Below, piece by piece: positions 3,703 through 28,300 of a stretch of DNA of 64,000 bases. A model generated the notes under the pieces. That model was not told the origin of the DNA and did no database searches. It saw only the letters and a list, made by a program, of their open reading frames with translations. The stretch spans positions 256,001-320,000 of the forward strand of contig JAVJQW010000008.1 in the NCBI GenBank assembly GCA_040218735.1, in the 5' to 3' direction. The stretch is from Deltaproteobacteria bacterium. Lineage in GTDB: Bacteria; Myxococcota; Kuafuiibacteriia; Kuafuiibacteriales; Kuafuiibacteriaceae. Position 1 is the first letter of the stretch. The number at the start of each line of letters is the position of its first letter. The position numbers and the translations under genes are program-made.

Positions 3703-5543
3703 CAGGTGCGCTTCCCCATGTTGAACAGGTAGTAGCCGAGCGCGGCGAACAGCAGCAGCCCGACGATCGTGGGTAGCTCCACGCCGAACCCGGGAGGTTT
3801 GGAGCCGGTGAAGAAGCCGTACGCCGAGAGACCGACGCCGACGAACCCGACGCCCGCGACGAGCCCGGACGCCGCGAGCACGCCCGCGTCGGCGCCTTCG
3901 TTCTCGGTCTTCTGCGCGCCGCGCTTGACGATCATGCTGATGATTCCGCCCGCGAGGATCGGCGTCATCGTCGAGAGTGGGAGGTAGAGGCCGACGGCCA
4001 CCGCGAGCGGCGGGAGCCGCAGCACGATCGGGATCAGCGTCAACGCCGCGCCGAGCAGGAACAGCCCCCACGGCACGCGCGCCTCGAGCACACCTTCGAC
4101 GATCGTCTGCATGAGGGTGCCCTGCGGCGCCGGCAGCTCCTTGCTGCCGAACTGGTACTGCCCGGCGAGGAGGATGATCGCCCCGGAGACGAACGTGATC
4201 GCGGTGAGGATGCCGACGATCTCACCGATCTGCTGCGACCGCGGCGTCGCCCCCACGATGAAGCCGGTCTTGAGATCCTGACTCACGTCTCCGGCCATCG
4301 AAGCGGCGACACACACCACGGTGCCCACGGTGAGCGCGGTGGTCTTGCCGACCATGTCGGTCCAGCCGAGCGCGTAGAAGACGAGCGACGTGCCGAGCAG
4401 CGTCACGATCGTCATGCCGGACGTCGGGTTCGAAGACACGCCGACCAGCCCCACGATGCGCGAGGACACCGTCACGAAGAGGAACGCGAAGATGCCGACG
4501 CCGAGCGCGCCCACGATGCGGAGCGGGATGCCCGCGTTTCGGCCGAGCACCTGCGGCGCCACCGCGACGACCACGAGCACGGCCGCGACGATCCCGAGCA
4601 CCACGCGCATGTCGAGGTCGCGCTCCGTCGAGGCCACCTCCTCGTCCGAGCTGCGGTTCTTGAGGTGCTCGAGGCCGGCCTTCAGCGAGCGCACCATCAT
4701 CGGCGCGGACTGCACGATCGTGTAGACACCCGCGGTCGCGACGCCGCCCGCGCCGACATAGCGGATGTAGTTGTTCCAGATCTTCGACGGCGACAGCTCG
4801 CCGAGCCCGGTGGGCGGCGTGGAGAAGAGGAACAACAGCGACGACTCGCCGAACGCGGCGAACGCCGGGATGAGGATCAGCCAGGACACCGCCGCGCCGA
4901 GCACCATCAACAACCCGATGCGCGGGCCGAGGATGTAACCGACGCCGAGGAGCGCGGGCGACAGCTCCATGCCGGCTTCGGCTTTGCCGAACCGCACCGC
5001 GGCTTCGCCGTGCCACATCTTCCCGAAGCTCGAGAGGAACTTGAACAGCGCGCCGAGCCCGAGGCCGACGAACACCGGCCGCGCCGAGGCGCCCCCCGCG
5101 TCGGCGGCGCGCAGCACGTTCGCGCACGCGGTGCCCTCCGGGTAGGGGAGGTTGTCGGCTTCCTCGACGATCAACGCGCGCCGCAGCGGCACCATGATCA
5201 GCACGCCGAGCAGGCCGCCGCAGCCGCCGAGGACGATGAGTTGGAGCAGCTCGGGATCTTGGCCCCACAGGAACAACGCCGGCGTCGTGAAGATCAGACC
5301 GGACGCGAGTGAGCTCGAAGCCGAGCCCACCGTCTGGGACATGTTCGCTTCGAGGACGCTGCTCCCCTCGCGCTTCGACAGCGCCGAGAAGATCGCCACG
5401 GTCATCACCGCGACCGGGATCGAGGTCGAGACGGTCAGCCCGACCTTCAGCCCGATGTATGCGTTGGCGGCGCCGAACAGGATCCCGAGGAAGATGCCCG
5501 TGGCGATCGAGCGTGCGGTCAGCTCCTTCAACCGGCCCGACAT
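3702..5543 (-). CDS. OPT family oligopeptide transporter
   Basis: ELTARSI...ANAYIGLKVGLTVSTSIP, LPYPEGTACA, SSNPTSGMTI, QDLKTGFIVGATPRSQQIGE, LPAPQ motifs; start MSGRLKEL at 5543. Confidence 0.95.
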   Translation of the reverse strand: MSGRLKELTARSIATGIFLGILFGAANAYIGLKVGLTVSTSIPVAVMTVAIFSALSKREGSSVLEANMSQTVGSASSSLASGLIFTTPALFLWGQDPELLQLIVLGGCGGLLGVLIMVPLRRALIVEEADNLPYPEGTACANVLRAADAGGASARPVFVGLGLGALFKFLSSFGKMWHGEAAVRFGKAEAGMELSPALLGVGYILGPRIGLLMVLGAAVSWLILIPAFAAFGESSLLFLFSTPPTGLGELSPSKIWNNYIRYVGAGGVATAGVYTIVQSAPMMVRSLKAGLEHLKNRSSDEEVASTERDLDMRVVLGIVAAVLVVVAVAPQVLGRNAGIPLRIVGALGVGIFAFLFVTVSSRIVGLVGVSSNPTSGMTIVTLLGTSLVFYALGWTDMVGKTTALTVGTVVCVAASMAGDVSQDLKTGFIVGATPRSQQIGEIVGILTAITFVSGAIILLAGQYQFGSKELPAPQGTLMQTIVEGVLEARVPWGLFLLGAALTLIPIVLRLPPLAVAVGLYLPLSTMTPILAGGIISMIVKRGAQKTENEGADAGVLAASGLVAGVGFVGVGLSAYGFFTGSKPPGFGVELPTIVGLLLFAALGYYLFNMGKRT

Positions 5544-11140: not shown

Positions 11141-12100
11141 ATGACCCGAGAAGCACCTCAGCTGAAGCGACACCACCACATCACGCTCTGCACCGGCGGC
11201 GCGCAGGAGGACTACGACTTCCACACCCAGGTCCTCGGTCTCAAGAGCGTCAAGAAGACCGCGCTCTACGACGGCGACGTGCCGATCTATCACCTCTACT
11301 ACGGCAACGACGTCGGTCAGGAGAGCACGCTCGTGACGAGCTTCCCGATGCGTCAGTCCGGTCGAAAGGCGCGCAAGGGATCGAATCAGATCACGAAGGT
11401 CTCGCTGTCGATCCCCACGTCGGGGTTGGAGTACTGGAAGAAGCGCCTCGTCGAGCATGGGTTCGACGTCAGGGCCGAGGAACGGTTCGGTGAGCAGATC
11501 CTCGCGTTCGCACACCCCTGCGGCATCGACTACGAGCTCGTCGCGATCGCCGACGACGACCGCAAGCCCTACGGCGGCTCCGACGTCCCGAGTGAGCTCG
11601 CCATCCGCGGCACCCACGGCATCACCGTGACGGTCCGCGAGCTCGAGCACTCCGAGGAGTTCATGGTCCAGGCGTGGACGGGCGAGAAGGTCGGCAGCGA
11701 CCGAAACTTCACGCGCTTCGCCGTGGGTGAGGGCGGCACCGGGACCCTCGTCGACTTTGAGGTGAAGCCCGACCTCGCGCCGGGCGGTTGGATGTACGGC
11801 GAAGGGATGGTCCACCACTGCGCCTTCCAGATCGACGACCTTGACGCGCAGGCCGACATGAAGTTCCGGTTGGAGGGGCTCGGCTTCACCGACGTCTCCG
11901 ACCGGAAGGACCGCGGCTACTTCGAGTCGGTCTACGTGCGGACACCCGGCGGCGCGCTCTTCGAGGCCGCGGTGTCGAAGCCGGAGGGCATGACGATCGA
12001 CGAGCCGTTCGAGAAGCTCGGGACGTCGTTTCAGGTCCCGCCGGTGTTCGCCGACCGCGCCGACGAGATCTTCGCGTCGCTCGAGAAGCTCGAATGGTGA
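11141..12100 (+). CDS. VOC-family ring-cleaving dioxygenase, LinE/PcpA (hydroquinone 1,2-dioxygenase)-like
   Basis: HHITLCTGGAQ, KKTALYDGDVPIYHLY, RKGSNQ, GEGMVHHCAF, GFTDVSDRKDRGYFESVYVRTPGGALFEA closely follow the LinE/PcpA motifs as I recall them. Confidence 0.88.
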   Translation: MTREAPQLKRHHHITLCTGGAQEDYDFHTQVLGLKSVKKTALYDGDVPIYHLYYGNDVGQESTLVTSFPMRQSGRKARKGSNQITKVSLSIPTSGLEYWKKRLVEHGFDVRAEERFGEQILAFAHPCGIDYELVAIADDDRKPYGGSDVPSELAIRGTHGITVTVRELEHSEEFMVQAWTGEKVGSDRNFTRFAVGEGGTGTLVDFEVKPDLAPGGWMYGEGMVHHCAFQIDDLDAQADMKFRLEGLGFTDVSDRKDRGYFESVYVRTPGGALFEAAVSKPEGMTIDEPFEKLGTSFQVPPVFADRADEIFASLEKLEW

Positions 12101-12795
12101 GCTCCGCGATCGCGAACCCTCACCTCGTGGCGCCGTTGACGCACCTCGGCGCGCGAGAGCCCCGCGTGGTCGTGATCATGCTGCACGGCCGGACGCACGA
12201 CCCGGGTGTCCTCGCGCGCGACGTCGTGGACCACCTCGACGTGCCGGGCGTCGCGTACGTCGCCCCCACGGCGGCGGGGCGCGTCTGGTATCCGCGCTCG
12301 TTCCTCGCGCCGTTCGCAGAGAATGAGCCGGACCTCGGGCACGCGCTCGCGAGCGTCGATGTCATCTCCGATGCGTGGGTCGAGCGCGGCGTGCCTCGTG
12401 AGGCCCAAGTCATCTTGGGTTTCTCACAGGGCGCGTGTCTCGCCTGTGAGTACGTCTACCGTCGACGCGCGCAGCGCTTCGGCGCACTCATCGCATTCAC
12501 CGGTGGGTTGCTCGGACCGCGCGGGACGAACTGGGACGTGCCGGTCAGCGCTTGGGCGGGGATGCCGGTCGTGCTCGGCGGGAGCCGTGAGGACCCGTGG
12601 GTTCCGTACGACCGAATGCAGGAGACGGCCACCGTGATGCGCTCGGGCGGCGCCGTCGTCGAGTCCTACTACAAGGACGGCGACGAACACGCGGTCTACG
12701 CGCCGCAGCTCCGGGTGGCGCAGGAGATCTTGGCGTCGCTCGCCGGTCAGTCCTGGTCGTCGGCGGTGAGCTCTTCGAAGCGGTTGCCGGCGTAG
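12094..12795 (+). CDS. phospholipase/carboxylesterase (alpha/beta hydrolase, MhqD/YodD-like)
   Basis: MLHGR, WYPRSFLAP, GFSQGAC nucleophile elbow, DPWVP and a C-terminal His; overlaps the dioxygenase stop. Confidence 0.88.
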   Translation: MVSSAIANPHLVAPLTHLGAREPRVVVIMLHGRTHDPGVLARDVVDHLDVPGVAYVAPTAAGRVWYPRSFLAPFAENEPDLGHALASVDVISDAWVERGVPREAQVILGFSQGACLACEYVYRRRAQRFGALIAFTGGLLGPRGTNWDVPVSAWAGMPVVLGGSREDPWVPYDRMQETATVMRSGGAVVESYYKDGDEHAVYAPQLRVAQEILASLAGQSWSSAVSSSKRLPA

Positions 12796-14075
12796 CGCGC
12801 GGCGAAGACCCAGACGAGCACCAGCGCGATCGTGATGATCGAGAGGTAGCGCATGCTCGCGATGTCGTTCGACAGCAGCGTGGTGATCAGCAGACTGACG
12901 CCGACCGCGAGCGCCTTCGCGAAGCGCTGGACGAACATGTCGATGAAGGCCTTCGCCTTGTACTTCTCGTCGCGGGAGGTCGGGGTGTAGAGCGCCTCGC
13001 GCGCGGACTGGTTGATCGAGTAGTTGAGGCCGTTGTCCGAGACACTCAGTGCGCCGCCCACGTAGAGGATCGGCATCGCGAGGTACGCACCCGAGGCGAG
13101 CATGATCGCGACGGGCATGATGAGGAGCGCGACCGTGTGGCGGAAGTTCGAGAGGATGTAACTCGTCAGGAACAGCTGCACGAAGAGGCCGAGGCCGTTG
13201 GTGATCGCGTAGGTGGTGCCGAACGCCGAGCCCAGCTCGTCGGCGGCGAGGAGCTCCTCGAAGGTCACCGTGAACTGGAAGTCGAGCATCGTGGAGATGA
13301 TCTCGTAGAGGCCGACGATCGCGACGATCGCGAGGAGGTAGCGCGAGCGGAACACGATGCGCGCGCCGTCGATCGCGGGGTTGCCACCGTCCTCCTCCTT
13401 CGCCTCGTCCCCCGGACGATCCGGCGGTGGGTTCGCGTCGACGATGCGGCCCGCGAACACCGCGAGGATCGCGATGACCACCGTGATGCCGATCCCGATG
13501 CCCATCCACGCCCCGAAGGAGATCGACTTCACGCTCTGCGCGACGAACATCGATCCGAACGCGCCGCCCGACACACCACCCAGGATGATCGGGCCGTAGG
13601 TTCGCTTCGCGGCGGAGGGGCTGAAGCTGTCGTTGAGGAACGCGAAGAACGTCGCGACCATCAGTGTGTTGTAGAGGTCACCGAAGAGGTAGAACAGCCA
13701 CGCCTTCACCTCGGTGGGTTCCTCGCCGAGCACCAGGAAACCGCCGAAACACACCGCGCAGAACGCGCAGAACGCGAGGGTGAGTTGCTGCCGGCGGAGG
13801 CGCCTCGCGAGCGTGGAGAACACGATCACGGCGCCGAAGGCGACGACCATGTTCATGACCTTCGCGATGAGCTCCGCCTGCGAGCCCTCGAGCTGCCACC
13901 CGAAGAGATCGAGCTTCCCCTGGGACTTGTAGAAGCCGATGAACATCGCCTTCTTCAGCGGCTTCACGATCCAGAACGTGGTGATGACCGCGAAGAAGTA
14001 GCTGAACATCAGGAGCGTGAGCGGGAGCTCGTTCCGCTTGATGTTCATGAAGGCAGAGAGGGGGTTCTTGGCCAT
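12747..14075 (-). CDS. NTT/TLC (ATP/ADP translocase-like) MFS transporter, stand-alone
   Basis: About 12 TM segments; IVKPLKKAMFI, FFAFLNDSFSPSAAKRTYG, NYSINQSAREALYTPTSRDEKYKAKAFIDMFVQRFAK. Confidence 0.85.
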   Translation of the reverse strand: MAKNPLSAFMNIKRNELPLTLLMFSYFFAVITTFWIVKPLKKAMFIGFYKSQGKLDLFGWQLEGSQAELIAKVMNMVVAFGAVIVFSTLARRLRRQQLTLAFCAFCAVCFGGFLVLGEEPTEVKAWLFYLFGDLYNTLMVATFFAFLNDSFSPSAAKRTYGPIILGGVSGGAFGSMFVAQSVKSISFGAWMGIGIGITVVIAILAVFAGRIVDANPPPDRPGDEAKEEDGGNPAIDGARIVFRSRYLLAIVAIVGLYEIISTMLDFQFTVTFEELLAADELGSAFGTTYAITNGLGLFVQLFLTSYILSNFRHTVALLIMPVAIMLASGAYLAMPILYVGGALSVSDNGLNYSINQSAREALYTPTSRDEKYKAKAFIDMFVQRFAKALAVGVSLLITTLLSNDIASMRYLSIITIALVLVWVFAARYAGNRFEELTADDQD

Positions 14076-14084
14076 GAATCTAAC

Positions 14085-15215
14085 TCAGAAGTTCGCGGTG
14101 ACGCCGGTGTGGATGGCCACCTCGTTGGCGAAGTCGGAGAAATCCCAGTACTCGCCGGATAGCTTGATGCGGAGACCACGCTGCACGACGATGTTCACGC
14201 CGAGGGTCTCCCGGAGGATGGCGCTGGTACTTCGCAGCGCAGAGCTCGCGAGCACGTTGCCCTTGCGTCTCATCCCGTCGAGGCGCCCGAAGACTTCCAA
14301 GTAGTCCGTTATCGGGTACTCGGCTTCGATGTAGAAGCCATCCTTGGTAAAGAAGTTCTTCTTGGGATCGAACTCGTAGCGGAAGCGTTCGTCGGGGTTG
14401 CTCCCGACGGCGAACTCCGTCTTCCGGAAGAGATACTCACCGCGTATGACCAGCGCGTCGAAGCGTAAGTAGACGTCCGCGCCTAATATCAAATACTCCA
14501 GATCCGCCGCTGGGTCGTAGTGGCCGTACATGCCCGATAACCCGAATGTCCCGTTCACGTAGTCCGTGAAGTTCAAGGTGAGGGCGGCCCGACCTCCTAC
14601 GGCGGGCTCGGAGTTGTTGTCGACGTAGTACAGCGAGCCGGAGCGTGACTGCACGAAGTCGAAGTCGAAGGCGTCGTTGTTGCCCTTGAATCCGCTGACG
14701 ACGTAACCGGCGTAGTCGAGCTGGGCGTCGTCGCCGAACCACTGCGTCCCGTTCACCTCCAGCCCGTTGTCCACGTACGGGGCCGGCACGATGCTCATGT
14801 TCCACTCGTTGCGGCGGAGCATGCGGCCCATGTCGTAGGGGAGGGGTTTGGAGTTTGCGCGGTGGTTCGCCGGGTCGTGGCGAAGGAGGAAGTCACCGAA
14901 CGCAGGGTTCATGCGCCCGACGCGGAAGTTGAGTTGGTCCGCGACGCGCATGTCCACGTAGGCCATGTCCGTCTCGAAGCCGTGGCAGCCGTAGCAGATC
15001 TTCACGTTGGCGCTGAAGTTCTCCGTGAAGTCGACGGCGAGTTTCACCGCGAGCTCGGTGGTGAACCCGTCGAACGTGAAGTTGCGCCCGTTCACGGAGG
15101 TTGGCACGGCGAGGTAGTCGAGCTGCGCCGAGCCGGCGAAGTTGCGTTCGATCTCGTAGGCCGAGGCCGTCGCGGGGAGCAGAGTCACGAGCAGCAGAGG
15201 CAGGAGCTTCTTCAC
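14085..15215 (-). CDS. outer-membrane beta-barrel (porin-like) protein containing a CxxCH motif
   Basis: Signal peptide (PATASA), amphipathic beta strands, porin-like AYVDM..NFRVGRMNPAFG, C-terminal Phe; CYGCH encoded at 14982-14996. Confidence 0.8.
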   Translation of the reverse strand: MKKLLPLLLVTLLPATASAYEIERNFAGSAQLDYLAVPTSVNGRNFTFDGFTTELAVKLAVDFTENFSANVKICYGCHGFETDMAYVDMRVADQLNFRVGRMNPAFGDFLLRHDPANHRANSKPLPYDMGRMLRRNEWNMSIVPAPYVDNGLEVNGTQWFGDDAQLDYAGYVVSGFKGNNDAFDFDFVQSRSGSLYYVDNNSEPAVGGRAALTLNFTDYVNGTFGLSGMYGHYDPAADLEYLILGADVYLRFDALVIRGEYLFRKTEFAVGSNPDERFRYEFDPKKNFFTKDGFYIEAEYPITDYLEVFGRLDGMRRKGNVLASSALRSTSAILRETLGVNIVVQRGLRIKLSGEYWDFSDFANEVAIHTGVTANF

Positions 15216-15598
15216 GGCGCCGCCTCACTTCCGCTCGCCCCGCCGGCGCTGTCCGGCGCGGTGCGCTGGGATGGGTTCTCTTCCTCCAGGTAGTGTTTGA
15301 GGAAGACGAGGATCTTTTCGCCGTCGGCCTTCGAGATCCCGGAGCCGGCGTGGTGCCGCATCCGCTCGACGTAGGCGACCCAGTGCGAGAAGTCGTCGAT
15401 CTGCGCGTTGAGCGGTCGCGACAACGTGTGGCACCGCGAACACCGCGCGGCGAAGAGGCGGTAGGCCTCCTGCACGTTCGGTGGGTACTTCGCGACCCGC
15501 TCCTCCGGGAGTCCGCCCCGCAGGGTGCTTCGCCCGGTCACACACGCGACGAGCGCGAGGGCGGCGAGCGCGACGAGGAAGCGCTTGTCAGTTGTCAC
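15212..15598 (-). CDS. monoheme c-type cytochrome lipoprotein
   Basis: Lipobox LVAC; LFAARCSRCHTL (15428-15442); WVAYVERM gives a candidate distal Met. Confidence 0.85.
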   Translation of the reverse strand: MTTDKRFLVALAALALVACVTGRSTLRGGLPEERVAKYPPNVQEAYRLFAARCSRCHTLSRPLNAQIDDFSHWVAYVERMRHHAGSGISKADGEKILVFLKHYLEEENPSQRTAPDSAGGASGSEAAP

Positions 15599-16052
15599 GG
15601 GCGCCCTCCGCGATCCAGTCGGCGATGAGCCGGCGCTGCGCTTCGGTCAGGAACGGCGGGCCGTCGAACGGCATCTGCGACCCAAACGGCGGGCCGGGGT
15701 TGATCTTCTGCCACAGGATGCTGTCGCACGGCTGCCCTTCTACGATGACGCCCGAGAGGCTGTTGTTTCCGCCGGCGCGCAACCCGGCGAAGCTCGAGAG
15801 GTCGAGGCCGGTTTGTTCGAAGCCGATCGGGTTGGGGTCCGTGGGTTGGTGGCACGAGCAACCCACCGGGCCGGCCTCCTCCCGGAGGATCGGCTGGATG
15901 TCCTGCGAGAACGAGACGTCGGTGTCCGGATCGGAGTCGTCGTTCACGCAGCGGCCCGCGATCGCGGGGCCGACGGCGGGGTCGAACGTGTCGACGACGT
16001 CGAGGCAGCCCCCGACGCCGACGCACAACGCGAGTACGCCCCAGCGCTTCAC
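15588..16052 (-). CDS. lipoprotein with a planctomycete cytochrome c (PSCyt1)-like domain and a non-canonical CxCH motif
   Basis: GTG overlapping the upstream stop (GTGA); lipobox VGGC; VSFSQDIQPIL...GCSCH...GLDLSSFAGL...SILWQKI...QMP...LIADWIAEGA. Confidence 0.8.
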   Translation of the reverse strand: MKRWGVLALCVGVGGCLDVVDTFDPAVGPAIAGRCVNDDSDPDTDVSFSQDIQPILREEAGPVGCSCHQPTDPNPIGFEQTGLDLSSFAGLRAGGNNSLSGVIVEGQPCDSILWQKINPGPPFGSQMPFDGPPFLTEAQRRLIADWIAEGARDN

Positions 16053-17032
16053 AGCGAACCCTTCGTTCGCTGGATTGGGCAGTTCACCAGCACGTCCTTC
16101 TGACGCGATATCGGCGGGACGACCTGCGAAGACACGACGTTCATCCCGACCGGGTCGTAGAACTGATCTTCCGCGGAGAGCCCGACCGCGGAGGAGGACG
16201 TGTCGATCGATAGGTAGTCTTCCTCGACCCGCACCACGGCGAGGTACCACAGCGGTGAGTAGCGCGGGCCGTCGAGACCGGACGCGAAGATGTTGTTCGA
16301 GTCGTTGAGGAGCTGGTCTCCCGTGATGTCGACGCCGCTCACGAACTCATAGAGCGGCGCACCTTCGTCGATTCGCTGGAGCACGTACACCGGGTACACC
16401 GGCATCTGGAGCTTCTCCGGCTCGAGACGTAGGAAATCGGTGAAGACCACCCAGTCGACGCGCTGATTTCGGTACCAAACCCAGCTCGGGTTCGCGTACT
16501 CATCTGGGTTCTGTCGGACCTGGATCTCCGTTTCTCGCAGGACCACGGGGCAGTTCGCCACCCGATCCGTCGCGGCGGGCTCCTGGAGGATTCCGGCGCG
16601 GATGCCCGCGTCGATCCCCTCGCGCGACCAGATGCGCTCGCCGTTGTACTTATCGGTCGTGTAGACCGTGAACACCCGCCACCACGGGGTGTAACCGGTG
16701 TCGCCGGGGATGACGTCGATGATCGTGCGGCCGATCTGCTGACCGTCCGGGCCGATGATTTGGTAGAGCGGCGCGATGAACGTGGCGTTGGGGCCGTCGA
16801 CGTTCCAGTACCAGATGCTCTCGCCGTCGGCCCAACCCTTCAGATACGCAACCTGCGACGCGAACTGCGCGATGTTGCTCGCGAGCGCCGGGTCGTCCTC
16901 GACGTGTTGGACCATTGCGGGGTCCACGTCGGGGTCCCCGAAGAAGGTCGACAGCGGGACATCGTCGTCCTCGGGGGGTTCGAGACACGCTCCGCACAGC
17001 AAGAGCGGTATCAACAGCCAGAGGGATCTCAT
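16049..17032 (-). CDS. lipoprotein with two internal repeats (Y[TS]P[WL]W ... NCP)
   Basis: Lipobox CGAC; GYTPWWRV...VANCPV and RYSPLWYL...LVNCPI; GGAAGGA SD upstream. Confidence 0.8.
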   Translation of the reverse strand: MRSLWLLIPLLLCGACLEPPEDDDVPLSTFFGDPDVDPAMVQHVEDDPALASNIAQFASQVAYLKGWADGESIWYWNVDGPNATFIAPLYQIIGPDGQQIGRTIIDVIPGDTGYTPWWRVFTVYTTDKYNGERIWSREGIDAGIRAGILQEPAATDRVANCPVVLRETEIQVRQNPDEYANPSWVWYRNQRVDWVVFTDFLRLEPEKLQMPVYPVYVLQRIDEGAPLYEFVSGVDITGDQLLNDSNNIFASGLDGPRYSPLWYLAVVRVEEDYLSIDTSSSAVGLSAEDQFYDPVGMNVVSSQVVPPISRQKDVLVNCPIQRTKGSL

Positions 17033-17051
17033 GCCGGTCCTTCCATCGGGG

Positions 17052-19205
17052 TCACAGGTCTCGGGTCGAGTAGGCGAGGGAGAATTCGATCGGAACGGCG
17101 CCCGTGTCGGGGTGAGGCATCCGCGCGGAAGCGTAGGCGTCTTCGAGGCATGGGCCTACCCCCGGCAGTCCCCCGGCGGTCACTTTGCGCAATCGGCCCT
17201 GCACGGTGATCGTCGCCTTCACGTTTACGCGTCCTTTGCGGTGCACGCCGCCGCGCGCGAGGGCGCGGCGCATACAGGCGTGGGCTTCGGTCTTCTTGCG
17301 CTCGAGCGCGGTGCGGATCCGGTTCTTCGACAGGCCCCCCGCCATCTCGATCGCCGCCATCTCGACGTCGACGCGGAAGCTCGACCCCAGCTTGGGCGGT
17401 CCCGCCGGCGTCGTCGTCGCGACCTTCACGGGTTTGGGCGCAGGTTGCAGGACCTTGGGCGGCGCCGCCTCGAGGGTCTTGGGGGGCGCGGCTTCGGCCG
17501 GAGGGGGCGGGGGCGGCGGCGCGCGACGCACACGTCGTTTACGCCGTCGGCGCTTGGGGGGATCCTTCGCATCTTCACCGGCGGCGAGCCGGTTCGCGGT
17601 GGGCGCACCGCCGGCGCGGGTGTCGGCGGGGTTCGCGCCGAGGGCTCCGTCCGAGCCGTGGGCGTTGCCGTCCGTGCCGTCGGCGTCGTGGGCTTTGCCG
17701 TTCGTGCCGTGGGCGTTGCCGTCCGAGCCGTCGGCGTTGCCGCTCGCGGCGCCCTCGGTCGTGCCGTCTCCGTCGGCCCCAGCGCCGTTCGCATTGGCGG
17801 CGCCGTTCGCGCCGTCATCGCCGTTCACGGACGCTCCGTCCGCCGCGCTCGCTCCGTCTTGGCCCCGCCCGGCGTTCGCGGTGCCTCGGCTCTGCGCCGC
17901 CCCCACGCGCGCCTCGTCCGCGCTGCCCGGCGCGACCTCGACCACGGCCCGCCCGTCGCGCCCCAGCCACAGGAACACCGCCAGCGCGCCGACCGCCATG
18001 AGCGCGAGCGCCCCCGGTATGAGCGCGATGAGCGTCTTGCCGAGCCCCGGCGCCGGCGGCGCGGTCACGGGGACCGTCGCGGGCGGCTCCGTCGTCGCGG
18101 CCATCGTGCGCGCTTGGCTCACCGCGCGATCCACCCGCGTGGCGCCCCGATCCGCGGCGGGCATCGGCTTCGTCGCCGCGATGGTCTCCTCGAAGACCGT
18201 CGCGACCGCGGTCGAGCCGCGCTCCGCCGGGGCGCGCGACGGCGGCAGCTCGAGGTCACCGATCTCCGCGGTCCGCTTGATGAGCGGCACCGAAGCCATC
18301 CCGGTCGTCGACGGCATGTCCAGGCCCGCCTCGCGCAGCAGCTCGCGCAGGGCGTCGCGCCCCTCGCGCGCGTCGAAGCGCTCCGCCGGGTCCTTCGCGA
18401 TCGCCTGCATCACGATCTGCTCGAGGCGCGGGTGCGGCGTCACCCCGAAGCTCTCCATCTTCGGCGGCGGCTCGGAGATGTGCTTCATGAGCACGCCGGT
18501 CGGCGACTTCGCCCGGAACGGCGTCCGCCCCGTGAGCATCTTGTACATGATGACGCCGCACGAATAGATGTCGCTCTTGGCGTCGAGTGGCTCCCCGCGC
18601 GCCTGCTCCGGCGACATGTACGCGGGCGTCCCGAACACCGCGCCCTGCCGGGTGAGCGGCCCGATCGAGCCGTCGTTCGCGTCGAGGATCTTCGCGAGCC
18701 CGAAGTCACAGACCTTCACGAAGTCCTGCACCGGTCCGTCCTCGCTGATCTTCTCGATCAGCATGACGTTCCCCGGCTTCATGTCGCGGTGGATGATGCC
18801 CCCCGCGTGCGCGGCCGCGAGCGCCGAGAAGACCTGCGACATGATCCAACACAGCCGCGTCGTCTCGATCTTCATCTGCTGGCGCAGCACGGCCTGAAGG
18901 TCCTGCCCCTCCAGGAACTCCATCGCGATGTAGAGCAGCCCCTCGTCCTCGCCGAAGTCGAGGATCTGGACGCTGTTCGGGTGGTCGAGCCGGCTCGCGG
19001 CCCGGGCCTCCGCCTTGAACCGCCGCGCGTGGATCTCGGGCGCCCCCTCCATCCGGAGGAGCACCTTGATCGCGACCGCCTTCGCCAGCCCGGTGTGCTG
19101 GGCGCGGTACACCTTCCCCATCGCGCCGCTCCCCAGCAGCTCCAGGATCTCGAGCTTGCCGCCGATGACGCGCCCGAGCAGGGGATCGATCGAAACTGGG
19201 TCCAT
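17052..19205 (-). CDS. membrane Ser/Thr protein kinase with a G/D/A/N-rich linker and a C-terminal extracytoplasmic domain
   Basis: LGSGAMGKVY, VAIK, HRDMKPGN, DFGLAK, GTPAYMSPEQ, DIYSCG; TM segment LIALIPGALALMAVGALAVFLWL; start MDPVSID at 19205. Confidence 0.92.
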   Translation of the reverse strand: MDPVSIDPLLGRVIGGKLEILELLGSGAMGKVYRAQHTGLAKAVAIKVLLRMEGAPEIHARRFKAEARAASRLDHPNSVQILDFGEDEGLLYIAMEFLEGQDLQAVLRQQMKIETTRLCWIMSQVFSALAAAHAGGIIHRDMKPGNVMLIEKISEDGPVQDFVKVCDFGLAKILDANDGSIGPLTRQGAVFGTPAYMSPEQARGEPLDAKSDIYSCGVIMYKMLTGRTPFRAKSPTGVLMKHISEPPPKMESFGVTPHPRLEQIVMQAIAKDPAERFDAREGRDALRELLREAGLDMPSTTGMASVPLIKRTAEIGDLELPPSRAPAERGSTAVATVFEETIAATKPMPAADRGATRVDRAVSQARTMAATTEPPATVPVTAPPAPGLGKTLIALIPGALALMAVGALAVFLWLGRDGRAVVEVAPGSADEARVGAAQSRGTANAGRGQDGASAADGASVNGDDGANGAANANGAGADGDGTTEGAASGNADGSDGNAHGTNGKAHDADGTDGNAHGSDGALGANPADTRAGGAPTANRLAAGEDAKDPPKRRRRKRRVRRAPPPPPPPAEAAPPKTLEAAPPKVLQPAPKPVKVATTTPAGPPKLGSSFRVDVEMAAIEMAGGLSKNRIRTALERKKTEAHACMRRALARGGVHRKGRVNVKATITVQGRLRKVTAGGLPGVGPCLEDAYASARMPHPDTGAVPIEFSLAYSTRDL

Positions 19206-19326: not shown

Positions 19327-22300
19327 ATGGCTGAAACGCCGGTCGATCCGGGCAGTTCGCCCGAGCCGACGTCGCTCGGCTTCTCGCTGGGGTTCATCGA
19401 AGGATCCGCGCTCGTCTCCCTGACCGATCGCCGGCTCGCCGAAGGCCTCGTCGTCCGCGCGCTCGACCTGCAGCTCGCCGAGGTCGAGTTCCCGCTCAAC
19501 CTCGAGGGCGGCGCCGAATCGTTCCAGCGCCGCTCGACGGCCCTCCGCAGCCTCGTCCTCGACGTCCACGTCGAGCTGATCGGCCGCGCCCTCACCGAAG
19601 CGCTCGAAGACGGCCCCCTCGAAAGCGTACACGTACGCACCGAGGGCGATCGCCTCACCGTCGAGGTCGGCCTCGCCGACGCCACGTTCGTCGGCACCGT
19701 CCTGCTCTCCCACGACGCCGACCGCACCGTGCGCCTTCACCTCCTCGACCCGATCGTCGTCGGGCCTTCGAAGATCGACGCGTGGTCGATACCCCCGCTG
19801 CTCCTCGACGCCGCTCGTCGCGCGCTGGGCGCCGAGAGTGAGCGCATCGCCGAGTCCCTCCGCCTGGCCGGCGCCACCACCTTTGCGATCGACCCCGCCG
19901 ACGCGCTCCTGTGGGGCCTCCTCCCGCCGCACGGCTGGAAGGTCCCGCACCACGACGAGGCGCCCGTTCACCGCGTCTCGATCACCCCGACGGGCTTCGT
20001 CCGCGTCGCGCTCGGTGCGCCCTCGAAACACGCCGACACCGACGCGGGGACCGCCGCCGACGAGCAAGATGTCTTGCGCGCGCTCGCCCGCGACGACATC
20101 GAGAAGTCGCTCGGCCTCGCGCGCGAGAAGCTCGACCGCGGCGACGCCGTCGGCGCGTTCACCGAGATGCGCAATCGCCTCGACGCATCCGGCGGTCCCG
20201 ACGCCCTCGTCGCCCGTCTTCTCGCGCTCGGCGCGACCGTCGAACGCCTCTTCGATGAGACGAACGACCTCGCCGACGATCGCCTCGAGAAGGACCCCGC
20301 GGACGTCCGCGCGCTCCTCGCCAAGGGGGCGATCGCGTCGGCCGAAGTGCGCGCCGACGAGGCCGCCGACGCCTTCGAGCGCGCGGGCCGCAAGCTCAAG
20401 GCCGAGGCCCACCGCCGCGCCGCCGGGCTCGCGTTCCGCGCCGCCGCCGCGGCCGTCGCGCGCCTACGGAAGAAGGGCTCCGCGAAGCGTCGGGTGCGGT
20501 TGCTCGAGGACACCATCGCGCTGCGCCCCGACGACACCGTCGCGCTGTCGGCGCTCGTCTCGGCGCTCCCCGCGCAAGGTCGCGCGCCCGCCGCCGTCCG
20601 CGCGGCGCGCCGCCTCGCGAACCTCGCGAACGATATCGACACTCGCGTGCTCGCCCACGTGTCGGCGGGTGAGCTGCTGCGCGATCCGATCGGCGATCTC
20701 CCGCAGGCCCAACGTGAGTTCGAGCGTGCGCTGCGGATCCGCGAGGACGATCCGGCGGCGCTCGAAGGCCTCGCCCGCGCGGTGATGGACGCGGGCGAGC
20801 CGCGTCGCGCCGCGGTGATCTTCGAGCAGCTGATCGAACGCGCCGAGGCGGACGGTCAGCGGGACCGCGCGGCGCGGATGTCGCTCGCGCTCGGTGATCT
20901 CTGGCGCCCGCTCGACGCCGAGGCGGCGATGCTCCGCTTCCAGCGCGCGCGCGAGCTCGATCGCACGAGTGTCCCGGCGCTCGCGCGCATCGCGGAGGTC
21001 GCGATCGAACACGGCGGCAACGAGGCCGCGATGGAGGCCGTCGAGTCCGCGCTCCCGATGCTCGACGAGGGACGCATCGGCGGGGACCGTGCGGCGGCGC
21101 TGTCGTTGCGGCTGACCGCGGGGCGCCTCTACGAGGAGCACGCGGACCTGATCGAGGAGGCGATCGTCCAGTACGACGCCGCGCTCGCGCTCGCGCCGAA
21201 CACCACCGAGGCGCTCGTCGCGCTCTCGCGTCTGTACGAGCGCCAGGGCAACACGCAGCACCGCGCGGAGGTGATCGATCGGCACGCGAAGCTCCTGGTC
21301 GGCGCCGGGGATCTCGAAGGCGCGGCCAAGGCGTGGGTCGAAGAGGCGCGGATTCACAAGGACGACCCGAAGCGGGTCGAGCGGATCCGCAGCGCGATCG
21401 TCGAGGGGCTCGCGAAGGAGCGCTCGCACCGCGGGCTGCTCGACGCGCTCGTCGAGATCGCTTCGCTCGGGGACGACGCGTCCGCGCAGATCGACGCGAT
21501 CGATCGCCGCCTGCTGCTCGATGATCCGCCGCAGGTGCGCGCGCCGCTGCTCACGCGCCTCGGTGCTGCGTTCGAGTCCGCGGCCCGCGAGGTCGAGGCG
21601 GCGCGCGCCTACGAAGAGGCGGTCGCGTGTGACGAGCGGAGCAAGGAAGCGATCCACGCGTTGTCGCGGATCTACCGTTCGCGTGACGACCACGAGCGCC
21701 TGGCGGGGGTGCTCGCGCTCGCCGGGCACCTCGCGGTCTCGGACGAGGAGCGCGGCGATCTGCTCACCGAGCGCGCGAGGCTCCTGAGGACGCTCGGCCG
21801 CGACGACGAAGCGTACGCTTCGATCCAGGACGCGCTGAAGGCGGCGCCGGAGTCCTCGGCCGCGCTCGCGGTCGCGACGAAGCTCGCGATCAAGCTCAAC
21901 GATCACGAAGCCGCGAAGCGTCACGCGCTGCACCGGCTCGCGCAGTCGGAGTCGCTGACCGCGGACAAGAAGCTGCCGATCTACGTCGACCTCGCGCGGG
22001 TGGCGGAGGCGACCGAGCGTCGCGACGAGCTGATCGACGCGCTCGAGCACGCGCGGGATCTCGCGGACCCGGAGAGTGAGACCGGTCGTCAGATCGCGGC
22101 GCGCCTCGCGCGGGAGCTGTACGGCGCGGAGCGTCTCGAGGAGCTCGCGGAGCTTCAGAGACGACGCGGTCGCGTGGCGACGGCGGCGGCGACGGAGCGC
22201 GCGGAGCGCTTCATCGAGGCCGCGCGGTTGTCGGCGCGTCTAGCGCAGCACGAGCAGCTCGTCGAGGACGTCGAGGAGGCGCTGTCGATCCTCGGGCGCA

Positions 22301-25300
22301 AACGACAGGAGGTCGAGCTGAAGCTGAAGGCGCTCGACGTCCTGGAGTCCCACGCTCGTCAGCGCGAGGACCTCGCGTTGCTCGCGGACGTCCTCGGGCG
22401 CCGCGCGTCGTTCGTCGGGCAGGCCGAGGAGAAGGAGCGCCTCTGGCTGGAGCAGGCCGACGTCTTCGATCGCATCGAGCGTTACGACGACGCGGTGAAG
22501 GCGCTGCAGGGGGCGTCGGATGCGCTGCCGTCTTCGTTCAAGCTCGCGGAGCGCTACGGGCGCGCGGCGCAGCGCGCGATGAAGAGCGGCGAGGCCGCGG
22601 AGGCGTTCGGGCGTGCGGCGCAGATCGCTCGCGCGCGCGGCGAGGTCGAGCTCGGGTTGGAGATGCACGGGCGCGCCGCCGAGACGTACGCGCTCATGCG
22701 CGATCGCGAGGCCGCCGCGGAGCACGATCGCGCTCTTCTGGAGCTGTCCGGTCCGTCGACCCGCTCGCCGTACCTCGCGGGGGCGATGGAGCGCCTGGAG
22801 CGGTTCGGTCGCGACCACGACGATCCGGAGCTCCTCGCCGACATCCTCGGTCGCCGCGCGAACGAAGCGCGCCCCGAAGACGCCGCGCGGATGCTCCTCG
22901 AGAAGTCCGAGGTGCACCTCGCCGGGGAAGGTGGGGAGCGCGACGGTGTCGATGCGCTGCGGCGCGCGCGTAACCTCGCGCCGCCGGGCACGCAGGTCGC
23001 CGAGGCGATCGACGATCGGCTCGTCGAGATCCTGGAGCAACTCGGCTTGCACGCCGAGCAGGCGGCGGTGCTCGTGGAGCGCGCGGACCGAGCGCCCGAG
23101 GGGGCGTCGAAGGCGGAGCTCTACTTCCGCGCCGCGGAGCTGTACGCGGAGCGGCTCCGAGATCGCGGGATGGCGTTGTCGCGCGCGCAGGCTGCGGTGC
23201 GCGCGGACCCGAGCCACGACGAAGCGCGGGCGCTGCGCATTCAACTCCTGCGCGCCGGAGGGCGTCGCGACGCGCTCGCGGAGGCGTTGGCGGAGGAGGC
23301 CGAGCTGTGCCGCGACGCGCGTCGTGCGGCAGAGCTTTGGTTGGAGGCGGCGCAGATCATCACGCCCGTCGACAACCATCATGCGCTCGATCCGCGCGAG
23401 GTCGAGCAGAGCCTTCAGCTCGTGCGTCGGGCCGCGACGGCGTCGCCGTCGTCGGTGGCGGCGTTCGAGGCCGGTGCGGTCTACACGCGGACGCTGGAGC
23501 GCGCGGACGAAGAGGTCGTGCTGCTCGGGCACGTCGTCGAGCGCGCGACGGAGGCGTCGAAGCGGATCGCGGCGCGCATTCGTCGCGTGGATCTGTTCGC
23601 TGGTCCGCTGCGACAGCCGGCCGACGCGCAGACGGAGCTGATGCTGATCCTCCCGGAGCTCGTCGGGTTGCAGAGCGCGGAGTGTGCGGCGATCGAAGCC
23701 GAGCTCCCCGCCGAGTCCGCGCGGCGCCTCGAGGTCGCGGAGCACGGCGGTGTGCGCATGGCGCTGCTGCAACTCGGGTTGACGCTCACGGAGCTGCAGC
23801 AGGACTGGACTGCGCACGTTCAGGTGTTGATGTGGCTCGTCGACGTCTCCGCCGACGCGGAGGTTCGTGCCGAGCTGCGCACGCGCGCGGGCGGTGTTTT
23901 GGAGTGGAAGCTCGGTGACGGCGAGGGCGCGGAGCGCGAGTACCTCGCGGCGCTCGCGTTGCTCCCCGGCAACGACCGCCCGAAGCAAGCGCTCGAGAAC
24001 TTCTACATGGCGGTGGATCGCTTCGCGGACATCGCCGACAACCTCGGGACCGAGACGCTCGTCGAAGTATGGGGGCGCCTCGGGGACGACGAGCCCCCCA
24101 ACCGCCTGATCGCCGCGGCCGAAGCGCTGTGGCCCAAGCTCCCGGAGGGGAGCGACGAACGCGCCGAGGTGCAGCTCCGGCTCGCCGACTTGTACGTGCA
24201 GCGCGATCGCGAGAGCGAGAGCGCCGACGCCGTTCACATCCTCGAGCAGGTCGAGCAGCGCGCGCCGCGGCAGTTCCAGGACGCGGCGCTCGAACGGTTG
24301 CGCGTGTTCTTCCTCGAGAAGGAGCGCGCGGACCTCTACTGCGACGTGCTCCGCCGACAGGCCGAGCGCCTCGAAGACGACCACAAACGTGCGCTCGCCC
24401 TCGCGGAGCTCGGCGAGGCGTTGGAGTGGAAGCTCGGGGACGGGCTCGCCGCGGAGAACGAGTACCGCGCGGCGCTCGCGGCGGACGCGGAGTGTGTCGA
24501 GGCGAAGCGCCGCCTCGCGCAGCTGCTCTCCTCGCAGGATCGGTTCGAGGAGATCGGTCGTGAGCTCGGCGTCGAGACGCTGGAGGGGGTGCTCGTCGAG
24601 CTCCTCGGTCAGGGCAGCCGCGACCGCGAGCGCGCGATCGCCGCGGCGGACGCGCTCGCGCCGATCCTCCCCCCGGAGCGGGTGGGCGGGGTCTGGCTGC
24701 GGGTCGCGGATTCGTTCGAGGTGGACGAGCCGACCGACGCCTCCGCGAAGGCGGTGCGCGTCGCGTTGCAGCGCGCGTCGGAGGCCGACGGTCCCAACCA
24801 GAAGCAGGCGCTCACCCGACTCACCGCGTGGCTCGCGCAGGCGAACGATCGCGGGGAGCTCGCGAACGTGCTGCGTCGCCGCGTCGAGATGGAGAAGGAC
24901 CCGGAGCTTCGGGCGTCGCTCCAGCTGGAGCTCGGGCGGCTCGTGATGTCGATGCTCTCCGAGTCCGAGGGCCCGGGGCGCGAGGCGATCGAAGAAGAGG
25001 CCGAGCGCGAGCTGCGCTCCGCACTCGAGACGGACGCGCGCAACGAAGAAGCGCGCGCGCTGCTGGAGCGCCTCTACCTCGAACGTGCGCGGTACCTGGA
25101 GATCGGCCGGGTGCTCGGACGCGAAGTCCTCGAGCGGCTGCGGGTCGAGGGTGAGACGTCGGGTGACGTCGCGCAGGCGCGCGGCGCGGTGGCGGCGCTC
25201 GCGGAGATGTCGGAGGGGTCCGAGCGGGCGGGGTTGCTCGTCGAGCTGGTCGGCTACGCAGAGGACGCGGAGGGGCAGCCCGGTTGGCCGCGGACGCCGG

Positions 25301-28300
25301 AGGATCTCTATCGCGCGGCGCTCGTCGCGGACTCTGGGCACGGCCCGGCGCGCGAGGGCCTGCGGGCGTTGCTCGAATCCGAGGGCCGGTACCGCGAGAT
25401 TGCGGACGCGCTCGATGTCGCGGCGCTCGTCGACACGCTGGAGGGGCTGCGTCGCTCGGATGACGATCGGCACCAGGTGCTGCCGGCCTCCCTCGCGTTG
25501 GCGAATGCGCTCGAGAACACCGGCGCGCCGCGCTCTGCGCAGGCGACGCTGTGGACGGAGATCGCGTCGCTGCACATCGAGGACGAGGACTCCGAGGCCG
25601 CCGAGCGTGCGCTGCGCGAAGCGTTGGCGCTGCAGTCGGACCACGAGGATGCGCGCGAGCTGATGCGGGAGCTGTTCGTCGCGGAGCGTCGGCTGGAGGA
25701 GCTCGCGGAGATCGACGAAGCGCTCGTCGCAACGACGGCGCAGCGCGCCTCCGAGACCGGGGACGCCGCGCTGCAGATCGACGCGCTGGACGTGCTGGCG
25801 TCCCGGAAGTCCGGGGAGCGTCGCGCGGACACGTTGGTGTGGATCGCGGCGTTGGAGCGCGAGCGCGGCTTCGCGGACCGCGCGGAGGCGCGGCTGATCG
25901 CGGCCATCGAAGCGCACGCACCGCACGCCGTCGCGCGCGCCGAGCTGGAGGGGCACCTGTGGCGCGAGCGGAGGTTCGCGGACGTGGTGGAGCGCCTCGG
26001 TGCGACGGCGCTGCTCGCGCGGGTGACGCGGGAGGTGGACGACGATCCCGATGGCGTCGTGGCCGCGGCGAACGCGACGCGCGATCTCCTGGAGCCCGCG
26101 GATCGCGCGCGGCTCGACGAGCTGATCGCGCCGGTGCAGGGGCTCGAAGCGCTCGAGCGCGCGAAGGCCATTTGGGACGAGCTCGAAGACGCTGCGGGTC
26201 GCTTCCGCGTGCGCCAGGCCATCGTGGATCTGCGACGCAAGGAGGGCGACGCTGCGCAGCTGCTCCTCGCGTTGGAGGGCGCCCACGCGTACGCGACGAA
26301 CGCCGAAGACCGCGCGCGAATCGCGGTCGAGCGTGCGGGGATCATGACCGCCGCCAACGATCGCGATCGGGCGCGTGCGCTCGTGGAGCCGCTCGTCGAC
26401 GACCTCACGCTGCCGCGCAAGGAACGTCAGGACGCGGCGCGGCTGTTGGTCGAGGATCTGCTCCCCGAGGTCGCCGCGGCGCCGTCCGAGGACGTGCTCG
26501 AGCTACGCGCGCGATCGCTGGAGGTGCTCACGGAGCTGCCGTCGGCGGGGCCGCCACCGGGCGACGTCGAGAAGTGGTTCGTGCAGCTGTCGAAGACCCG
26601 CGAAGCGCTCGACTACGACGCGGGCTCCGTGGCGCAGCCGCTCGAGTCTGCGCTGCGCGTTCGCAGCCAGGAGGACGACGGGATGGAGATCCGTCGTCGC
26701 CTCGTCGAGTTGTACGAAGAGGTCGGCGACTGGGCGCAGGCCGAGCCGCACGCGTCGGTGATCGCGGAGGCGGACGACCGCCCCGAACAGTGGGTGCAGC
26801 TGTCGGAGCTGCGCGCGTGGCTCGACGATCCGCAGGGCGCTCAGTCCGCGCTCGATCGCGCGCTGGAGCTCGACCCCGCTTCGGAGTCCGCGCACGAGTC
26901 GATGATCCGCCTCGCCGAGCAGACCGGCGAAGCCACCTCGGTGATCACGCGGCTGGAGGCGTGGGCGGAGGTCGACGCGAAGGGTGAGGCTTCGGATCGT
27001 GCGAAGCGTCTGCTGCGCGCGGCGGAGCTCGCGATCGAAGCCGGCGACGCCGAGCGCGGTGCGCTCCTCGCCGAGCGCGCGGTGACGTTGGTTCCGCGCA
27101 AGGATCCCTCGGTCGAACCCATCGCGTTGGAGGCGTGTGCGATCCTCGCGCCGTCCGGGCTCGCCGACGCCCGCATCGCGATCCTCACGCGCGTGGTGCA
27201 GGAGGCGGGGGCGGACGTTTCGTCGTCTTCGCGCATCGCGCTCGCCGACCTGTTGGTGGAGCAGGACCGGATCGACGAGGCGCGCACGGTCGTCGAGCAG
27301 GGCGTGCACCGCGAAGCCGCCGAGGACGATCCGCTCCTGGATCGCCTCGTCGAGATGACCCGATCCCTCACGCCGGACGCCGGTGCGCGCAGGATGCTCG
27401 CGACCGCGGAGCGCCTCGGTGCGGGCCCCGCGGCGCGTCGCCTGCGCATGGCGGGCGCGGAGCTCGCGGAGTCGGCGGGGGAGCGTGAGACGGCGCGTGC
27501 GGCGCTGACGAACATCGTCAGCGAGCTGGGCGGCGAGGCGACGAAGGCGCGCGAAGCGCTCGTTCGAATCACCCGCGATCTCGACGATGCACCAGCGCTG
27601 GTTGCGGCGCTCGAAGAGGCCGCGCTGGACGCCTCGACGTCCGTCGAGCGCGCAGAGAAGTGGGCGGAGGCGGCGGCGGTGGCGGACGAGCGCCTCGACG
27701 ACCCGGAGCGCGCCGAGCTGCTCCTGTCGCGCGCGATCGCCTCGCAGCCGAACGACGTCGCGCTCCGGCAGCGCCGAATCGATCTGCTACAGCGGCGCGG
27801 TCGGTGGTTCGATCTGCTGGAGGCGTACGCGTCGGAGGCGGAGCGTGCGGAGGGGCCGGCGAAGATCGAGTGGCTCGAACGCCGCGCGACGTTGGCGTCC
27901 GAGCGGCTCGGCGACGAAGCCACGCTCGCGGCGTCGCTCGAGCAGGCGTTCGACCTCGGCGGCGACGTTCAGCACGCGATCCGCGCGATGCAGGCGTACC
28001 GGAACACGTACGAATTCGACGCGCTGCTGTCGCTCGCGGAGCGCGTGCCGGTGAAGGCGCCCGAGGTTCGTACCGTCGTCGATCTGTTGATCGCGGACGC
28101 GATGGAGTCGCTGGGGCGCATCGAAGAAGCGCGCGCGATGTTGGAGCGCCTCGCGGCGGAGCAGTTCGACGTCCCGCTCGTTCAGCACCGGTGGTGCACG
28201 TTCCTTCACCGTCACCGCGACCTCGAGCTCCTCGCGCGTGCGCTGGAGACGATCGCCATCAACGTCGAGCCGCGCGAAGGGGTGCGGTGGCAGCTCGCGG

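Follow-up and report, generated by a model that had tools for sequence, protein, structure and literature searches.

Six minus-strand genes in a 64,000-nucleotide (nt) stretch of a myxococcotal genome (contig JAVJQW010000008.1; the whole stretch is called the window here, and its genome G000) include a conserved envelope redox module whose members are mostly monoheme and which, from synteny and motif conservation, is distinct from MtrAB, Pcc and Cyc2, as a preliminary description of this DNA had proposed. On gene neighbourhoods and alignments, the conserved core consists of PSC, a monoheme lipoprotein, CYT, a class I cytochrome c, and a 16-strand outer-membrane barrel that probably carries a heme of its own; together with a membrane Ser/Thr kinase, four of the six genes form the module. 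The same description had treated all six as one unit, which is ruled out by the carrier, found beside 0/79 barrels, and by the DUF7482 lipoprotein, found beside only 11/64 and limited to the window's clade. The chances are about even that the module is a low-flux redox relay across the outer membrane which feeds signalling and is read by the transducer. No published description of the barrel or of the gene set was found, although these genes could figure in the supplementary tables of surveys on electron transfer, and the module is apparently undescribed. The six genes, in order of reading, with lengths in amino acids (aa), are:

17052-19205, minus strand: membrane Ser/Thr kinase, 717 aa, intact open reading frame, Pfam Pkinase.
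16049-17032, minus strand: DUF7482 two-repeat lipoprotein, 327 aa, no heme motif, Pfam PF24298.
15588-16052, minus strand: PSC, monoheme lipoprotein of the PSCyt1/FoxE type, Pfam PSCyt1; core.
15212-15598, minus strand: CYT, class I monoheme cytochrome c lipoprotein with CSRCH and Met80; core.
14085-15215, minus strand: outer-membrane barrel modelled with 16 strands and an OprP/OprO fold, 376 aa; core.
12747-14075, minus strand: TLC/NTT-like carrier of the major facilitator superfamily (MFS), 442 aa, Pfam TLC; outside the conserved module.

All six reading frames are intact, and the junctions from kinase to carrier (+19, -4 with GTGA, -11, -4 with GTGA and +9 nt) are reproduced as previously given. 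G+C content at third codon positions is 0.86-0.95 in the six frames. The earlier count of three lipoproteins, one beta-barrel and a terminal carrier agrees with the lipobox-like cysteines in three of the six products, the 16-strand model and a Pfam TLC/MFS match. The three heme-type motifs it listed, CSCH, CSRCH and CYGCH, are all present, but CSCH is a contracted CxCH and not the standard CxxCH. The single RNA run (share 0.07) contains short related pieces only, with no read bridging genes, and leaves co-transcription unsupported; a promoter and terminator scan gave no signal exceeding shuffles. The carrier is possibly co-transcribed with the module genes in the window.

The core is defined by its neighbourhood. 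A first search placed the barrel in 32 loci of species-representative genomes, at which tblastn finds CYT in all 32, PSC in 30 and a kinase in 29; DUF7482 is present in 6 and the NTT-like carrier in none. In a wider search, profile A2 (48 rows) matched 116/401 genomes of the window's phylum and 58/301 of the planctomycetal phylum of G401, and its scores split into a heme-motif family and a distant heme-less family. Strong matches occur in 74/401 genomes of the window's phylum (E<1e-60, counted by hand) and in 13/301 of the other (E<1e-80); the barrel family is common. Metagenome scans with two fused proteins as queries gave no match, nor did a plasmid search. Wide regions were taken round 50 of the A2 matches, from the top of the lists; 4 duplicates were removed before barrels were counted, and a neighbour was counted when it lies on the same strand within 3.5 kb of the barrel. 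For the 64 myxococcotal barrels, CYT is near 60, PSC near 57 and both near 54; for the 15 planctomycetal barrels the figures are 15/15 for CYT and 11/15 for PSC. The order of the core genes varies across the two phyla (PSC-CYT-barrel, PSC-barrel-CYT, barrel-PSC-CYT). As a control, 14 barrels of the distant heme-less family were examined: CYT lies within 1.5 kb of 2/14 and PSC of 0/14, while true members have one or the other nearby in 28/29 and 12/13 (40/42 together). The homologs are thus syntenic, and the Cys/His motifs are conserved among them, contrary to the findings that the preliminary description had named as those that would speak against it.

Gene fusions join the same components. 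One or two CYT domains are fused ahead of the barrel in 21/150 representatives listed, all of them distant homologs (P0164, a 22nd match, is a fragment and was excluded), and 2 of these 21 also carry a PSC-like domain. PSC is joined to the end of an MtrC/MtrF-type decaheme in locus L130, fused with an EB_dh domain in L071, and attached to Ig-like stalks in planctomycetal lipoproteins. Because of these three kinds of fusion a surface location is hinted at for PSC, even though the two PSC-CYT-barrel fusions speak against it.

The barrel is modelled by AlphaFold2 with 16 strands at pLDDT 87.4. Its best Foldseek matches are OprO/OprP (E 5e-13, TM-score about 0.6), and a remote sequence match leads to the same porins (3.6e-5, identity 12-13%). 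Against the corresponding Pfam model, PF07396, it scores 15.6 bits with a cut-off of 20.9, a weak match shared by 51/77 members. No family model in Pfam or in other family-model scans covers the barrel, profile A1 finds no match among PDB sequences, and an Atlas search places it in unnamed or 'porin' clusters; for 10 distant members a cluster look-up yielded no taxonomy. The CYGCH motif (residues 74-78, nt 14982-14996) lies between strand 3 (67-77) and strand 4 (79-92), and Met129 (nt 14829-14831) lies in loop 3. The alternation of short turns with long loops, together with a terminal Phe, places the motif on the outer side, so that in the model residues 74-78 would occupy the outer tip of the strand 3-4 hairpin, with Met129 in the long loop 3.

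Across 48 homologs with a mean column identity of 20%, C74, C77, H78 and M129 of the barrel are invariant, and the two inner residues of the CxxCH form 19 different pairs. Many Arg, Lys, Asp and Glu residues are invariant as well. Judged on these alignments, the cysteine motifs are conserved far beyond chance. Both CxxCH and Met are present in 82/83 barrels scoring above 200 bits (one read by eye), the sole exception being cut by a contig end, and neither is present in 19/19 weaker barrels; both counts retain some near-duplicates. Such joint keeping or loss is, at the level of sequence, the pattern expected for a His/Met heme c, and points to a heme probably carried by the barrel itself. A cluster of CcmE/F/H/A/B/C-like genes is present in G000.

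PSC and CYT have distinctive features of their own. PSC matches Pfam PSCyt1 (PF07635) with 23.3 bits against a cut-off of 22. Its motif in the window is CxCH (C65-S-C67-H68), the canonical CxxCH being absent, and the spacing of the cysteines differs by clade, being CxCH in that of the window and either CxxCH or Cx4CH in others. Both cysteines and the histidine are invariant in 45/45 rows, and M127 is present in at least 90%; M127-P128 corresponds to the distal Met-Pro, making Met127 the probable heme ligand from the alignment. Shorter and longer spacings of heme motifs have precedent, and a functional CKCH is mentioned in a passage of PMC7096707 that cites Ferousi 2019. The PSC family profile matches FoxE (PDB 5mab) at 9e-22, with both FoxE heme domains covered. 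In CYT, C53, C56, H57 and M80 are invariant in 55/55 rows, and the protein aligns with the heme domain of cytochrome c_z (PDB 3a9f, 1e-10) and also resembles SorB. CYT is a lipoprotein in the window's clade, and families f9 and f14 mostly lack its lipid Cys, so that it can also exist in soluble form in the periplasm; it is probably the periplasmic relay. A Cys-x-Pro-x-Val-Gly sequence follows the lipid Cys in 31/45 PSC proteins, including that of the window (15588-16052), and recurs in the cupredoxins that replace PSC and in several decaheme lipoproteins (L025, L027, L066, L129, L131). It may be a sorting or barrel-binding signal.

These motifs could be explained otherwise, the barrel CxxCH being a disulfide or metal site, or the hemes binding a gas (O2, NO), so that sensing would proceed without electron transfer across the membrane. 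The tight outer hairpin is an unusual position for a heme c, the CxCH of PSC is non-standard, two barrels retain only CxxH, and a truncated globin lipoprotein precedes the kinase in some relatives. However, the His right after the second Cys, the free inner residues and the co-loss of the distant Met follow the His/Met heme c pattern, a functional contracted motif, CKCH, is reported, and six-coordinate His/Met hemes suit electron transfer and not gas binding. This explanation is improbable.

The kinase has a Pkinase domain at residues 19-281 (2.8e-49) with intact catalytic motifs and a single transmembrane helix at 392-410, followed by a low-complexity, Pro-rich periplasmic linker of about 195 aa. 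It ends in an AgmX/PglI-like domain, similar to the TonB C-terminal domain, in which a pair of cysteines is conserved. The tail scores 30.1 bits (3.9e-7) against NF033768, below the cut-off of 40, and 23/25 tails match at E<=0.1; the tail profile has no match in the PDB. The preliminary description rightly included the kinase in the unit but gave too little weight to what is the most informative neighbour. A membrane transducer, which may be a Ser/Thr kinase, a SpoIIE phosphatase or a chemoreceptor, stands on the same strand within 3.5 kb of 53/64 myxococcotal barrels, against a background of 12.4% of 5000 random positions in G000. Four types of transducer fall in separate clades of a barrel tree made by a quick method and rooted at its midpoint, in which L081 (a duplicate of L004) and L013 are wrongly labelled 'other'. 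Ser/Thr kinases with AgmX-like tails belong to the window's family and to Polyangiaceae records; PEGA kinases, with the gene placed between barrel and CYT, form a second type; dCache-HAMP-SpoIIE proteins with an anti-sigma kinase and a STAS protein form a third; and chemoreceptors form the fourth. Among some 260 matches in G000, most of the tail-bearing adjacent kinases place the window's kinase at rank 1-3, those of L025 and L027 at 30 and 16, and the PEGA kinases, another subfamily, at 132-160. Because kinase rankings and clade distribution differ, at least two kinase subfamilies and two other systems were gained separately, and the evidential weight of the link rests on these few independent gains, not on 53 loci. 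At L079 one CYT copy remains beside the SpoIIE gene, with the barrel 7 kb away. As a mechanistic proposal, the window's kinase may be the clade-specific output of the module.

A parallel module of the Cyc2 type is present in the same genome (L133:5517-11594, equivalent to G000:C56:85516-91593). It is headed by a CYT paralog (99.2%; C56:85516-85875), which is accompanied by a monoheme protein, a membrane protein, a cupredoxin-like lipoprotein (read by eye, with no Pfam match), a porin with the Cyc2 motif and a CheA-like dCache-HAMP-Hpt kinase; a di-heme peroxidase gene precedes it. In six regions round close homologs of its Cyc2-type gene, CYT is found in 5, the sixth being a short contig, a CheA-like kinase in 3, and a histidine kinase or cyclase in two others. 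Four more distant Cyc2-type genes have no CYT. The second module repeats in relatives. The CYT family thus links two unrelated heme-porins to transducers. A section of PMC8406198 describes what divergent Cyc2 homologs do as uncertain.

As to heme attachment, sidedness, contact, direction and purpose, we infer the following sequence of steps. The Ccm system would attach heme c to PSC, barrel and CYT. The barrel heme would sit at the outer rim, ligated by His78 and probably Met129. An oxidant or reductant outside the cell would equilibrate with PSC and with a surface lipoprotein that is exchangeable, DUF7482 in the window and a decaheme, EB_dh/DOMON, globin or cupredoxin protein in other loci. 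The change would pass through the pore to periplasmic CYT; hopping or a small redox-active solute is a likelier route for this than direct contact between hemes. An inner-membrane transducer, the Ser/Thr kinase in the window, would then read CYT or the barrel complex, and the kinase linker and TonB-C-like tail could span the periplasm. Because the flux would be low, the output would be a signal and not respiration. The more specific proposal, to which we give somewhat less than an even chance, is an outer-membrane heme-porin receptor that senses the redox state of surfaces, minerals or prey and passes electrons to CYT, to be read by interchangeable kinases, phosphatases or chemoreceptors. If so, certain Cyc2 homologs of Myxococcota would likewise act as such receptors and not as iron oxidases.

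Several observations weigh against this signalling relay. A transducer stands beside only 1/15 planctomycetal barrels, and 11/64 myxococcotal loci are without one, 4 of these being cut by a contig end. The loci are also related and were picked from the top matches, so that the independent events behind 53/64 number perhaps four or five. The transducers have unrelated periplasmic parts (AgmX-like, PEGA, dCache), and three adjacent kinases (L002, L003 and the upstream copy in L007) end right after the transmembrane helix, which together speak against one fixed docking surface. It may also be that the transducer regulates the module and does not read it. PSC and CYT are retained beside three barrels that are heme-less (L124-L126) and beside two in which a single Cys of the motif is left (L078, L132); because these five motif-less barrels keep both cytochromes, the barrel heme is dispensable in some clades. 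Finally, the decahemes beside the triad in family f14 fit respiration equally well.

The last point leads to the main rival, a metabolic electron conduit, in which the triad would carry out Cyc2-like Fe(II) oxidation or substitute for MtrAB in feeding MtrC/OmcA decahemes, while the transducer only regulates it or shares its promoter. The barrel has the same fold as that described for Cyc2 in part of PMC8406198, PSC is similar to FoxE, an Fe(II) oxidase, the triad stands by itself in planctomycetal loci, and MtrC-family decahemes occur in or beside the module at several f14 loci, with one PSC fusion; L116 also runs on into a Rieske/cytochrome b-like pair, read by eye only. Against a conduit, the three core proteins are all monoheme in the window, and the outer-rim heme, to judge from the topology, would lie too far away for electrons to reach a periplasmic cytochrome quickly in one step. 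The recurring neighbours include no quinol oxidase or reductase, G000 has many separate multiheme genes (35 with at least 4 motifs), and a plain wire would not need the repeated gain of different transducers. A metabolic role is less likely than the relay, though the triad may have been a conduit ancestrally and a sensor in Myxococcota.

The accessory genes are less constant than the core. The DUF7482 protein matches Pfam PF24298 in two stretches, and the consensus shows Asn-Cys-Pro ending each repeat; blastp of its two halves gives no alignment, so that the repeat rests on Pfam and the consensus. Its model (pLDDT 94.9) has no solved-structure match at Foldseek E<=0.001 (best Z 2.6), which does not imply a new fold, and an Atlas search with the protein gave no match. 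A type IX secretion system (T9SS) sorting domain occurs in 3/97 homologs. The protein is probably a surface-exposed accessory. Elsewhere its slot holds EB_dh lipoproteins (11), truncated globins, decahemes or an inverted cupredoxin, and since all identified occupants are redox or heme proteins, the accessories are suggested to tune the input. The cupredoxin replacing PSC in L025 and L027 lies on the opposite strand and is weak evidence. In 7 Polyangiaceae-type loci (for example L008:3881-5226) a group 1 truncated-globin lipoprotein and an unnamed protein of 200-230 aa stand before the kinase.

The carrier matches Pfam TLC (6e-16) and reaches 62.7 bits against TIGR00769, for which the cut-off is 387.2, so that an assignment as an NTT nucleotide exchange transporter is rejected and only the broader TLC family applies. 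It was beside 0/32 barrels in the first set and 0/79 in the wider one. In G004 and G063, which have its nearest relatives (56% and 49%), these are on contigs other than that of the barrel. On this evidence it is a local neighbour only and not a module member, and the redox-coupled uptake through an NTT-like carrier that the preliminary description had considered falls away with it. Uptake could still be envisaged through the pore itself, if the hemes oxidised or reduced a metal or oxyanion at the mouth of the pore so that it could enter. The closest solved folds, OprP and OprO, are anion channels and the barrel keeps its many invariant charged residues; neither the carrier nor any other importer recurs next to the module, and an uptake pore is very improbable. 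A CusA/B/C-like efflux cluster near L069 is a single case, read by eye.

Other genes were noted. In G000 (C8, C17, C21, C42, C70) five TLC-like carriers are 744-983 aa long and greatly extended at the C-terminus, and several precede proteins that by eye look cyclic-nucleotide-binding. TldD-like and OPT-like genes, also read by eye, lie 7-10 kb downstream in the window (2065-5543, minus strand) and directly after the barrel in L001-L003; because they adjoin the barrel there, the carrier and its neighbours are suggested to have been inserted later. The 3' end of the carrier gene overlaps a convergent carboxylesterase frame (12094-12795) by 49 nt (12747-12795), which comes after a glyoxalase/dioxygenase and a LysR-like gene. 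On the other side, a gene for a 4166-aa TPR-rich protein (19327-31827, plus strand) diverges from the kinase at a distance of 121 nt, and a homolog holds the same position in L001, L002, L003 and L005.

Porin-cytochrome systems are interpreted as wires for respiration, and cyc2 serves as a marker of iron oxidation in genomes. If the module is a sensor, it shows a way for bacteria to detect the redox state beyond the outer membrane and gives a defined input for myxobacterial Ser/Thr kinases; some Cyc2-like genes would then mark signalling, which is a caution for the marker. As a wire, it would be a minimal conduit of a new sort and may explain MtrC-type decahemes without an adjacent MtrAB pair. 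In either case the barrel is a simple test case for heme c on an outer porin loop.

The module shares features with several known systems, each of which differs from it in its own way. The OprP/OprO phosphate porins are the best fold match and a remote sequence match, but identity is low, the Pfam score stays under its cut-off, and the window barrel adds a heme motif. The barrels of MtrAB, PioAB and Pcc are heme-free with 20 or more strands, while the window barrel has 16 strands and an invariant CxxCH. Like MtrCAB, PioAB, MtoAB and Geobacter Pcc, the module has a porin with periplasmic and outer cytochromes in one cluster, but the former, as outlined in part of PMC4245776, have 8-14-heme periplasmic cytochromes and a larger heme-free barrel. 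PSC and CYT have one motif each, and the decahemes that join the module in family f14, a further likeness to MtrCAB, are of the MtrC/MtrF type. A predicted barrel with heme motifs in its loops, GM18_3465, is noted once in the same source (PMC4245776, in part) with 10 motifs and 21 strands; by this description alone, the numbers of motifs and strands set it apart from the window barrel. PSC matches each heme domain of FoxE from Rhodobacter ferrooxidans (PDB 5mab; PMC10654088, in part), including the Met-Pro ligand motif, but it is a lipoprotein with one heme motif whose Cys spacing varies, and no genes resembling foxYZ were seen beside it. The kinase shares with Myxococcus GltG/GltJ a transmembrane helix, a long disordered linker and a TonB-C-like end domain; the GltG/GltJ tails, according to a section of PMC11761067, span the periplasm and are predicted to reach a periplasmic or outer-membrane complex. 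By analogy the kinase tail may do likewise, though its cytoplasmic part is a Ser/Thr kinase and its proposed partner the heme-porin module. A further likeness is to Cyc2/Cyt572, which have a 16-strand OprO/OprP-like barrel and a single c-type heme motif (PMC8406198 and PMC13741234, each in part), and planctomycetal CYT-barrel fusions share their layout of cytochrome before barrel. Cyc2 is defined by AxPxFAR[Q/K][T/Y] 5 residues before CxxCH (a passage of PMC8406198). This motif is absent from the window barrel, and PxFAR occurs in 1/125 aligned rows, far from the heme motif. The CxxCH of the window barrel lies inside the barrel on a predicted outer loop, whereas the heme of Cyc2 is in an N-terminal domain, and the two differences exclude membership of Cyc2. 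The window barrel has no significant match (7.9%) to the Cyc2-motif protein of G000, and the module has separate PSC and CYT proteins and ties to transducers. The module works like Cyc2 but is not Cyc2, nor is it MtrAB or Pcc.

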